Source: Klebsiella phage phiKp_32. Taken from it: DNA of 64,000 bases. The stretch lies in the sequence record LC768500.1; one strand, given 5' to 3'. This document shows positions 34,861 to 36,243 of this stretch, piece by piece; the stretch's first letter is position 1; every line of letters begins with the position of its first letter. A model generated the notes under the pieces. It was given only the letters and a program-made list of their open reading frames with translations. It searched no databases and had not been told where the DNA came from. The position numbers were made by a program, and so were the translations under genes.

Positions 34861-36243
34861 TGAGTACAATATTATGTTGAGACTCAGGAGCAAATTAAGA
34901 TGAAACCAATTGAGTGTAAAGATTTTCCAGGGTATTACGAGATACCCAATTTTTCCAAGTACTGCATTAATAAAAAATCAGATATTATTCATAAACGCAA
35001 AAACAAAAAAATCAGACAGTACGACGTTAAATCTTCTGTGACGTCCAGGCCAGAAACCGGGTGTTATAAAAGAGTGACGATGTATTCTGATGATAAAAAA
35101 CTCCACGCCTTTTCGGTCCATCGGTTAATGGGCTTGGTGTTTAAACATCCTGGTGCCGGGTTTCACTCTCTACAGGTCCACCACGGAGATGGGATAAAAT
35201 TTCATAACGACATCGATAACTTAGAATGGGTTACACCCAAGACCAATATTGTTTTAGCAAACGATTATTACATGGGTAAAGCTAAAATACCTGTCCAAGC
35301 TAGGTCTAAAAACGGTGAAGTTCTAAATTTTTCTAATCTAAGTGATTGTGCTAAATTACTCGGGATCCATAGGACAACCCTTATCTCCAGATTAAGTACG
35401 TTTGGAGAAAAGTTTGTTCACCCAGAGGGCTATCAACTGAGGTACGGAAATTCCGATAAGCCATGGGTTGCACCAGACGAAGAATCAGCTAAGGACTTAG
35501 ATGAGTTTTACTCGTCACCCATTTTGGTAAAAAATCTCAACACTGGCGAAGTGAGGGAATTTAAAACAGCCAAAGGCGTGATGGAATTAATAGTAAGATC
35601 TCCGTCAAGCATAAGTACTTTGAGTAATGATTCGACTCAACCCATTGTGATGGGTAAAGATAACGTACCGTACATTCTCATAAAAAAATATTCTGGGGTC
35701 GATTTCAGGAGAGTTGACGATCCAATGAATGATTTTGTCGAACAACAGACCAATACCAGAACGGTAGTTGCGACGAATGTTACGACTAATGAAAAGAGAG
35801 TTTATACGACCGCGCAGGCGTGCGCATCTGATTTTGGAATAGGAAAAACTACACTTAATTGGCGTCTTAAGAAACCCATCCCTGGTGTTTTCGACGGATG
35901 GATTTTTAGATATTACGAGGCCCGTATGGGAGGAAACACCCATACGCAATAATCTTTAATTGTTCTGGGACGATCTCGAAGACTCTCATACCAAAGCGGA
36001 ATACGAAAGTATAGACGTCATGGTTTTAAAAGTTGAGAAGAGAGACGATCTAGCAGCGAAGCACCTACGTATCTTCGAGAGAAGAGATAGGGTGAACGTT
36101 CAACGACTATGGGTGAAACTCCCAGTAGATTTTACATGAAGTAATTTCGAAACAGGATTCCCTTCGAGTGAGCTGAAGAAGCTCGATACTCATGGGTGAA
36201 ATATAGTCTGCTCCCTACGGCGACGTAGCGGCGGGTGTCATAG
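34861..36243 (+). mobile_element. group I intron carrying an HNH homing endonuclease ORF; boundaries approximate (about +/-10 nt)
   Basis: Same P7-like strands as intron 1: GTTCAACGACTA (36098-36109) and AAATATAGTCTG (36199-36210); HNH ORF located 5' of the ribozyme core; flanking coding sequence is continuous by homology (..VIFS | HTGLKEATGHKALFSG.. cf. ELFEARRPKEPAILAEISG). Confidence 0.7.
34900..35952 (+). CDS. intron-encoded HNH homing endonuclease (NUMOD4-like N-terminus, HNH core, C-terminal HTH)
   Basis: ..CKDFPGYYEIPNFSKY.., ..HRLMGLVF..QVHHGDGIKFHNDIDNLEWVTPKTN.., ..SDCAKLLGIHRTTLISRLS.. Confidence 0.75.
   Translation: MKPIECKDFPGYYEIPNFSKYCINKKSDIIHKRKNKKIRQYDVKSSVTSRPETGCYKRVTMYSDDKKLHAFSVHRLMGLVFKHPGAGFHSLQVHHGDGIKFHNDIDNLEWVTPKTNIVLANDYYMGKAKIPVQARSKNGEVLNFSNLSDCAKLLGIHRTTLISRLSTFGEKFVHPEGYQLRYGNSDKPWVAPDEESAKDLDEFYSSPILVKNLNTGEVREFKTAKGVMELIVRSPSSISTLSNDSTQPIVMGKDNVPYILIKKYSGVDFRRVDDPMNDFVEQQTNTRTVVATNVTTNEKRVYTTAQACASDFGIGKTTLNWRLKKPIPGVFDGWIFRYYEARMGGNTHTQ

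Follow-up and report, generated by a model that had tools for sequence, protein, structure and literature searches.

Klebsiella phage phiKp_32 (record LC768500.1), of which we analyzed a stretch of 64,000 nucleotides (nt) that we refer to as the window, very probably carries, in the gene that encodes the N-terminal portion of the virion RNA polymerase (RNAP) β subunit, a mobile subgroup IA group I intron that codes for an HNH homing endonuclease; comparative analyses indicate that this intron is real, well formed, and probably active. The phage is a Miamivirus-like jumbo phage of the phiKZ type. As a first-pass annotation made without database searches had recognized, the element is the second intron of the RNAP gene cluster; the other, intron 1, is an open reading frame (ORF)-less intron in the β′ N-terminal gene. 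That annotation had also assigned the second insert to the C-terminal polypeptide of β′ and to positions 34861–36243; both assignments are revised here.

The Interrupted Gene and Its Intron-Less Alleles

In the window, an ORF of 1055 aa at 31696–34863 ends ..HSTSDDPKRLTVIFS (..DDPKRLTVIFS), and an open frame that lacks an ATG resumes ..HTGLKEATGHKALFSG, runs into ..KALFSGVQQSQGVS.. and continues to 37386, both as described in the first-pass annotation. A megablast search with positions 33800–37400 matched six phage records. The insert is present in Raoultella phage VB_ZK_P1 (98% identity) and absent from Klebsiella phages Miami (two records), KPN8, and YC1 and from Stenotrophomonas phage BUCTxx100 (97–98% identity). 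The intron-less phages match in two segments that are contiguous in each of those genomes, with the break at window positions 34841/36277 in pairwise BLAST comparisons, and this presence/absence polymorphism is real and far beyond chance. In Miami and KPN8 the region is a single coding sequence (CDS) of 4257 nt annotated as RNA polymerase beta, and the two exons of the window gene add up to exactly the same length. The intron-less allele reads ..GAT GAC CCC AAA CGT GCT CTG TTC.. (DDPKRALFSG; the Miami target stretch is ..GATGACCCCAAACGTGCTCTGTTC..), and the window reads ..GAT GAC CCA AAA CGG T(TAACTG...CATAAG)G CT CTG TTC.., with a predicted spliced allele of ..CCAAAACGGTCTCTG.. The product of the joined exons is most likely one RNAP β subunit of 1418 aa that is colinear with the uninterrupted gene of relatives.

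By homology, the host gene is that of the virion RNAP β subunit, related to phiKZ gp178 and PhiPA3 gp211/209, because its flanks align to β, because it is homologous to gp211 and PHIKZ178, and because the gene order resembles that of PhiPA3. A junction-spanning peptide of 531 aa gave significant PDB matches to RNAP β chains only, and the joined exons align unbroken to positions 540–713 of Thermus β (e value 1e-5), with LSVTSNLLAHSTSDDPKRALFSGVQQSQGVS at the junction and the ..NFEDAI.. block downstream. Exon 1 is homologous to PhiPA3 gp211 along its whole length (BLASTP e value 4e-100), and the β gene matched PHIKZ178 in a tblastn search; phiKZ gp178 is the β subunit of the virion-packaged RNAP (PMC11620839). 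The order β′ N gene, β exon 1, HNH gene, and β exon 2 corresponds to PhiPA3 212-211-210-209. The split falls inside the β motif HDDANRAL, here DDPKR^S/A (a caret marks a junction throughout). Among 275 phage records with a β homolog, almost all of the 60 that we sampled are uninterrupted at the insertion spot.

Ribozyme Core and Covariation

Positions 35894–36230 match Rfam RF00028 with 51.9 bits, a small margin over the gathering score of 50 (e value 2.7e-10 for the whole window), and the P7-strand sequences already picked out in the first-pass annotation are in place (GTTCAACGACTA at 36098 and AAATATAGTCTG at 36199). This match and the covariation described below uphold its reading of the insert as a group I intron. 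Applied at the gathering threshold to related loci, Rfam missed the family members except PhiPA3 and FishSpeaker intron 1; the VB_ZK_P1 copy of the intron (95% identity; locus L002, 8299 region) and the Aeromonas and metagenome members went unreported, and routine Rfam annotation will therefore overlook most of this intron family.

In place of Rfam, family members were recruited by lower-stringency blastn, a metagenome pattern scan, and then an nhmmer profile. The blastn search revealed ORF-less core homologs between two β ORFs in Aeromonas CF8, PS1, and PS2 and in Shewanella FishSpeaker, and the pattern scan and nhmmer profile added the metagenome contigs L021 and L025, a partial copy in L018, and a tandem pair in L023 (L023 introns a and b). 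An exact-pattern scan of IMG/VR with GAAATATAGTCTGCTCC returned four chance matches, with no intron among them.

An alignment of eight introns was folded with RNAalifold, and the consensus comprises P2, P3, P4-P5 with extensions, P6, P7.1, P7.2, P8, P9, P9.1, and P9.2; P7 was added as a pseudoknot and four conflicting mini-helices were removed. An RNAalifold pairing of the internal guide sequence with the 3′ splice site (columns 14–17 with 382–385) was removed as noncanonical. The 95 pairs of the eight-intron alignment show standard pairing in 95.2% of cells, compared with 36–45% in slid controls, and two-sided changes occur at 51 of these pairs (shuffle mean 26.6; 0 of 500 shuffles reach 51). 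P7 is invariant in the family alignment and hence uninformative for covariation. Compensatory changes across divergent phages imply that the predicted fold is under selection. The intron is assigned to the subgroup IA type because two extra hairpins, P7.1 and P7.2, are predicted to separate P7 from the 3′ strand of P3, an arrangement that reportedly defines this subgroup in the 1990 scheme of Michel and Westhof.

Splice Sites and the P1 Helix

Comparison with the intron-less allele leaves two possible junctions. Option A, CGG^UUAAC...CAUAAG^GCU (intron 34843–36276), has G at position −1 and codes for Ala, and option B, CGGU^UAAC...CAUAAGG^CUCUG (intron 34844–36277), has U at −1 and codes for Ser. 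With either option the intron ends in the terminal G (ωG; G36277 or G36276) and exon joining restores the frame. In all family members GCC lies directly 5′ of P2 and pairs with the exon end GGU, whose U is in a U.G wobble. Introns inserted 10 nt upstream of the window site, right after DD, occur in PhiPA3, EL-like phages, and FishSpeaker, and in the last the site is set by the frame (GAU GAU^..CAUUG^CCC AAG AGA). An exon end GAU combined with a guide GUC is found in the introns at this upstream site (PhiPA3, the EL-like phage HHBS8_1, FishSpeaker, and L023 intron a) and in both β′ introns. When the P1 register of 12 introns is compared, position −1 is U.G in 12 of 12, position −2 covaries (G-C at the site of the window intron versus A-U at the neighboring site), and position +1 shows four pair types.

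The family 3′ end is GGACAnnAGG, and the frame forces a cut after AGG both in L023 intron a (..GAC GAU^...AAAAGG^CCA AAA AGG) and in VB_ZK_P1 intron 1 (..GGC GAU^...AACAGG^CAA CUU). A search for related loci with exon 2 returned six intron-less loci only, which are informative for the residue after KR. At this residue the intron-less homologs have Thr (five IMG/VR contigs), Ser (contig L012), or Ala (Miami); PhiPA3 has Val. Option B is favored because of the P1 register, the precedent of the AGG ends, and the variability of the residue after KR; the 5′ splice site most likely follows U34843, with G36277 as ωG and DDPKR-S-LFSG as the predicted product. The result is a precise junction prediction, Ser versus Ala: the Ser junction predicts the cDNA AAACGGU^CUCUGUUC and the tryptic peptide SLFSGVQQSQGVSATNYQTNWLR (SLFSGVQQ..), and the Ala junction predicts the cDNA AAACGG^GCUCUG and the tryptic peptide ALFSGVQQSQGVSATNYQTNWLR (ALFSG..).

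The first-pass annotation had placed the 5′ splice site after TCC, with an atypical C at −1, and had offered AATATT/AATATT as a candidate P1. The intron-less alleles fix the insertion 17–18 nt upstream of that site, the base at −1 is most likely a canonical U, U34843, and the predicted P1 pairs GGU^U with a GGCC that lies 1.07 kb downstream. The AATATT/AATATT pairing is unused in the minimum free energy (MFE) fold of the 5′ region, which forms a hairpin that buries a Shine-Dalgarno sequence instead. A P1 partner near the 5′ splice site, G(C/U)(C/U)GUU, was sought by eye in the first 60 nt and gave no usable pairing; the guide lies past the ORF. A register that pairs ACGG with CCGU (35922–35925) clashes with P2 and is unconserved in CF8 and PS1. 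P10 (CUC/GAG) is lost in VB_ZK_P1 and L023b and was set aside as a discriminator between the two junctions.

The Endonuclease Gene and Its L1 Setting

An ORF of 350 aa starts 56 nt into the intron and lies upstream of the ribozyme core, as the first-pass annotation had found. In Pfam it matches NUMOD1 with 25.1 bits (cut-off 22.8), HNH_3 with 23.7 bits (curated cut-off 24.8), and HTH_30 and HTH_8 below their cut-offs; NUMOD4 was not detected in this ORF by Pfam. The earlier proposal of NUMOD4, HNH, and HTH domains is thus kept for the last two, with NUMOD1 in the place of NUMOD4. The protein also matches PHROG 59 "HNH endonuclease" (e value 2.8e-26) and I-HmuI (1U3E; e value 1.5e-4), and tblastn matches include PhiPA3 gp210 (e value 8e-27), phiKZ gp179, and I-TwoI. 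A pairwise alignment with gp210 extends over 342 columns and 96% of the length with 29% identity (e value 2e-36). The HNH motif reads VHHGDGIKFHNDIDNLEWVTPKTN; its VHHGDG..DNLEW..N aligns to VNHKNG..DNLEW..N of gp210 and places H95 opposite H82, and the H82R substitution abolishes nicking by gp210 (PMC11620839). By these homologies, the ORF encodes an HNH enzyme of the I-HmuI/PhiPA3 gp210 type with its predicted catalytic residues, the general-base His and the Asn residues, intact.

The Shine-Dalgarno sequence of the endonuclease ORF, AGGAG at 34886–34890, is the 3′ strand of the predicted L1 hairpin and is sequestered there, and the in-frame UGA (34861–34863) that ends translation of unspliced exon 1 lies inside the same hairpin. 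The last ∼11 codons of the ORF overlap the guide and P2, and its stop codon at 35950–35952 begins one base ahead of P3. An L1-borne HNH gene is also found in PhiPA3 (gp210) and in VB_ZK_P1 intron 1 (an HNH ORF of 424 aa). In the intron-less phage Miami, an unannotated region of MT701590 (235947–236771) matches the window HNH protein in tblastn (24% identity, e value 2e-8) and may be a further unannotated HNH gene or a remnant.

Relation to Known Introns

Birkholz et al. 2024 (PMC11620839) demonstrated experimentally that gp210, which is encoded in a group I intron of the PhiPA3 virion RNAP β gene (gp211/209), is an HNH homing endonuclease with nicking activity. Both the intron-less gene and phiKZ gp178 are nicked, and PhiPA3 gains a competitive advantage (PMC11620839). 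The window intron resembles that of PhiPA3 in its host gene (the phiKZ gp178 ortholog), in the conserved motif that it interrupts, in its layout (exon 1, HNH ORF in the P1 loop, guide-P2-core, exon 2), and in its homologous endonuclease with an aligned catalytic His. It differs in that the insertion lies 10 nt downstream (DDPKR S^, phase 1) rather than right after DD (phase 0), in its guide (GCC versus GUC), and in its ribozyme lineage (49% aligned identity to the PhiPA3 core, which shares 59% with window intron 1); furthermore, the host range of the window phage is enterobacterial. Judged by these likenesses, the window element extends the PhiPA3 kind of intron to a second site 10 bases away, and it is unannotated in public relatives.

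The ORF-less introns of Aeromonas CF8, PS1, and PS2 and of contigs L021, L025, L018, and L023b belong to the same ribozyme family (73% identity; nhmmer e values down to 1e-110) and share the insertion site, guide, and 3′ end of the window intron, but they carry an L1 hairpin of 30–40 nt where the window intron has a 1.05-kb endonuclease gene. They are unannotated in public records. The DNA-polymerase intron of Bacillus phage SPO1 with I-HmuI and the nrdE intron of Staphylococcus phage Twort with I-TwoI are likewise phage group I introns that code for HNH enzymes with NUMOD modules, but their host genes and ribozymes are different and the match is limited to the N-terminal and HNH part. The T4 td intron (IA2) is similar in its 5′ start (UAAyUG..), P7 strands, P7.1/P7.2, and P9-P9.2 tail ending ACAUAAnG, and the ribosome-binding site (RBS) of its endonuclease I-TevI is buried in a hairpin, as in the window; the td ORF encodes a GIY-YIG enzyme and lies outside the P1 loop, and the searches made gave no match at the sequence level between the td and window introns. 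A homologous HNH protein, phiKZ gp179, adjoins the same RNAP genes (between gp178 and gp180), but its neighbor gp178 is uninterrupted, and no sign of splicing was seen at this locus (PMC10914365).

Proposed Mechanism and Alternative Explanations

In the pre-mRNA, the exon-end GGU and the first intron base would pair with the guide GGCC at 35919–35922, so that P1 spans a 1.07-kb loop holding the endonuclease gene. Guanosine would attack after U34843, at the U.G wobble, and ωG36277 would then serve exon ligation to give ..GAU GAC CCA AAA CGG UCU CUG.. and the 1418-aa protein. Translation would compete with ribozyme folding on each RNA molecule, because the RBS of the endonuclease would be buried in a hairpin and the 3′ end of its ORF lies over the guide and P2. 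If the enzyme acts as gp210 and I-HmuI do, it would nick intron-less alleles close to their DDPKR codons when relatives like Miami or KPN8 co-infect; repair by recombination would then copy the intron and exon flanks into the target, and the nick may also handicap the competitor. The sole sign of nicking and homing, an indirect one, is the occurrence of intron-plus and intron-minus alleles among phages that are 97–98% identical.

Several observations weigh against this account. The Rfam score is barely above threshold and the VB_ZK_P1 copy falls below it in a larger scan, the HNH_3 score is ∼1 bit short of its cut-off, the exon part of P1 is 3 bp only, and P10 is 3 bp in the window and unconserved in relatives. 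Long-read transcriptomics of phiKZ found no evidence of splicing at predicted intron/endonuclease loci including gp179 (PMC10914365). The phiKZ result would fit a dead ribozyme, with β made as two proteins (the 1055 aa up to the UGA and an internally started C-terminal piece) that assemble noncovalently like the subunits of phiKZ-type enzymes. RNAPs of this type naturally consist of several polypeptides, the β′ N-terminal gene ends soon past DFDGD, the β gene stops ahead of the C-terminal β motifs, and in public records the two pieces are entered as CDSs of their own. Such a split protein is nonetheless highly improbable, given that the break would lie inside an ultraconserved active-site motif, that no ATG or Shine-Dalgarno sequence is found past the junction, where the sole listed in-frame start is a TTG at 36253 inside P9.2, that the helices are kept by compensatory changes across divergent phages, and that the U.G wobble, guide, and ωG are all intact. 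Still further from credible, and refuted by the intron-less allele and the alignment to β, is the first-pass version of an intron in the C-terminal β′ subunit at an LPRVAELFEAR motif with a noncanonical C at −1. It drew on a visual resemblance of short peptides (LPRVAELFE and ARRPKEPAILAEISG) and nothing else, whereas the flanks align to β, the gene bears the annotation RNA polymerase beta in related phages, the motif is the HDDANRAL of β, and the intron-less allele moves the insertion away from the proposed site.

Within a spliced β gene, the same intron could be excised one base leftward, with the 5′ site after G34842 and G36276 as ωG, which would join CGG^GCU (Arg-Ala) and yield the protein of the Miami allele. 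This Ala junction differs from Miami by a single synonymous change (CGT to CGG) and leaves the intron ending in G, whereas the preferred junction needs two substitutions and swaps the Ala of the closest intron-less alleles for Ser; the same ambiguity exists in every intron at this site (all ..GGU..AAG GCN). We consider the Ala junction unlikely. The cleaved P1 pair would be G-C, yet the register that accounts for the covariation at −2 and +1 puts a U.G at −1 in each of the 12 introns; homologous 3′ ends whose cut is settled by the frame are cleaved after AGG rather than AG; and Ser, Thr, and Val are all found at this residue in homologs, so that Ala appears dispensable.

With the Ser-junction intron as the preferred reading, the gene model of an essential enzyme would be corrected: in VB_ZK_P1, the closest public record, this region has no annotation beyond separate "hypothetical proteins," and the product is most likely one RNAP β. 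The same reading would carry over to enterobacterial jumbo phages the model set by PhiPA3 gp210, that of an intron endonuclease as a weapon between co-infecting nucleus-forming phages; among the enterobacterial phages, natural intron-plus/intron-minus pairs of 97–98% identity exist and are ideal for tests of homing, marker exclusion, and interference competition. A DD..KR motif with two distinct neighboring homing sites bears on how endonucleases and ribozymes partition target space. A tentative extension, conceivable even though we lean somewhat away from it, is that the active-site motifs of chimallivirus RNAPs (β DD-x-KR and β′ DFDGD) are contested by several ribozyme lineages and several HNH lineages at homing sites only 6–10 nt apart, which would coexist, swap modules (the P9 domain and the L1 endonuclease gene), and each recode the exon (here U^CN, Ser), with the window endonuclease acting as a weapon against intron-less Miami/KPN8 as gp210 does against phiKZ.

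Table 1. Predicted features of the interrupted β gene and of intron 1, in window coordinates
Feature	Position	Strand	Remarks
Exon 1, virion RNA-polymerase β (N-terminal part) gene	31696–34843	+	Ends ..GAU GAC CCA AAA CGG U; 97% identity to CPT_Miami_233 up to 34841
Exon 2, β gene	36278–37386	+	CU CUG UUC UCC GGG.. to stop codon; 97–99% identity to Miami/KPN8 from 36277 on
Group I intron, 1434 nt	34844–36277	+	Absent from Miami, KPN8, YC1, BUCTxx100; Rfam match; covariation; P1 register; alternative 34843–36276
P1 5′ strand GGU^U	34841–34844	+	Pairs with GGCC 35919–35922; U34843 is the U.G wobble marking the 5′ splice site
Internal guide sequence GGCC (P1 3′ strand)	35919–35922	+	Directly 5′ of P2; placement and sequence logic shared across the family
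L1 hairpin, 9-bp outer stem	34857–34890 (34857–34865 with 34882–34890)	+	MFE −15 kcal/mol, z −3.06 versus shuffles
HNH homing-endonuclease gene, 350 aa	34900–35952	+	In P1 loop; predicted catalytic His H95; NUMOD1/HTH modules
P2 hairpin (CGUAUGGG / CCCAUACG)	35923–35946	+	Compensatory changes at all 8 pairs (family alignment, helix 1)
Catalytic core	35951–36208	+	Rfam alignment, RNAalifold, pair counts, coordinate mapping
P3	35951–35956 with 36154–36159	+	
P4-P5	35960–36059	+	
P6	36062–36094	+	
P7	36105–36109 with 36204–36208	+	
P7.1	36110–36124	+	Helix 13, compensatory changes
P7.2	36131–36145	+	Helix 14, compensatory changes
P8	36160–36196	+	
Peripheral 3′ domain	36209–36277	+	P9 36209–36233, P9.1 36235–36248, P9.2 36249–36269; helices 18–20 with compensatory changes
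3′ terminus GGACAUAAGG, ending in ωG36277	within 36209–36277	+	
Intron 1, 380 nt, ORF-less group I	31146–31525	+	In β′ N-terminal gene 29706–31699; GAC UUC GAU^..G^GGC GAC (DFD^GD, GGDFD^GDQ)

Intron 1 and Other Introns of the RNAP Genes

Intron 1 lies inside the catalytic motif DFDGD and the window β intron (intron 2) inside a β motif, and the first-pass annotation was right to place both in highly conserved motifs. Its claim that the two introns are related holds only distantly: an nhmmer model of the intron 2 family matches intron 1 with an e value of 0.003 and 47% aligned identity. Intron 1 scored 37.5 bits in a local Rfam scan (e value 6e-8), which falls short of the gathering score. It is absent from Miami, whose gene 232 is continuous, and from KPN8. 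In the first 18 nt past intron 1 (31526–31543, compared with 3727–3744 of the Miami locus L001) there are eight substitutions, all synonymous, by which CAA CTT AAC AGT AAC TCC becomes CAG TTG AAT TCT AAT TCA, and the surrounding kilobases are ∼97% identical; this cluster may reflect either co-conversion with a divergent donor or target-site immunity.

VB_ZK_P1 has another intron in the same β′ gene (L002 1996–3732), 6 nt downstream (GAU GGC GAU^...AACAGG^CAA CUU, DFDGD^Q). It is ∼1.74 kb long with the 424-aa HNH_3 ORF in L1, and its P2-P8 core is homologous to that of window intron 1. The P9-P9.2 tail of this VB_ZK_P1 intron has no relation to intron 1 and is similar to that of window intron 2 (identity at 59 of 91 aligned bases), and this hybrid of core and tail suggests modular exchange between introns.

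The L023 contig (JACCDR011225896.1, ∼3189–4062) carries two homologous ORF-less introns in tandem in one β gene, at the sites DD^ and DDPKR(S)^ and with the guides GUC and GCC, respectively; a 10-nt mini-exon, CCAAAAAGGU, lies between them, and the predicted spliced product is ..STIDD PKR SLFSGVQHSQ.. FishSpeaker has an HNH-containing intron in its β′ N gene (L006 840–2806; Rfam 53.9 bits) and an ORF-less intron after DD in β (L006 5973–6308), and an ORF-less intron after DD is also found in the EL-like Pseudomonas phage HHBS8_1 (L032 476–891). These introns of FishSpeaker and the EL-like phages are unannotated or misannotated, with small "hypothetical protein" CDSs placed inside the ribozymes.

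Downstream of the β gene, the longest ORF of the next gene (37331–38248, 305 aa), which in Miami is annotated as "peptidase" or hypothetical, shares 56 nt with the end of β. The Miami annotation starts this gene just past the β stop codon, and the true start is probably a downstream ATG.

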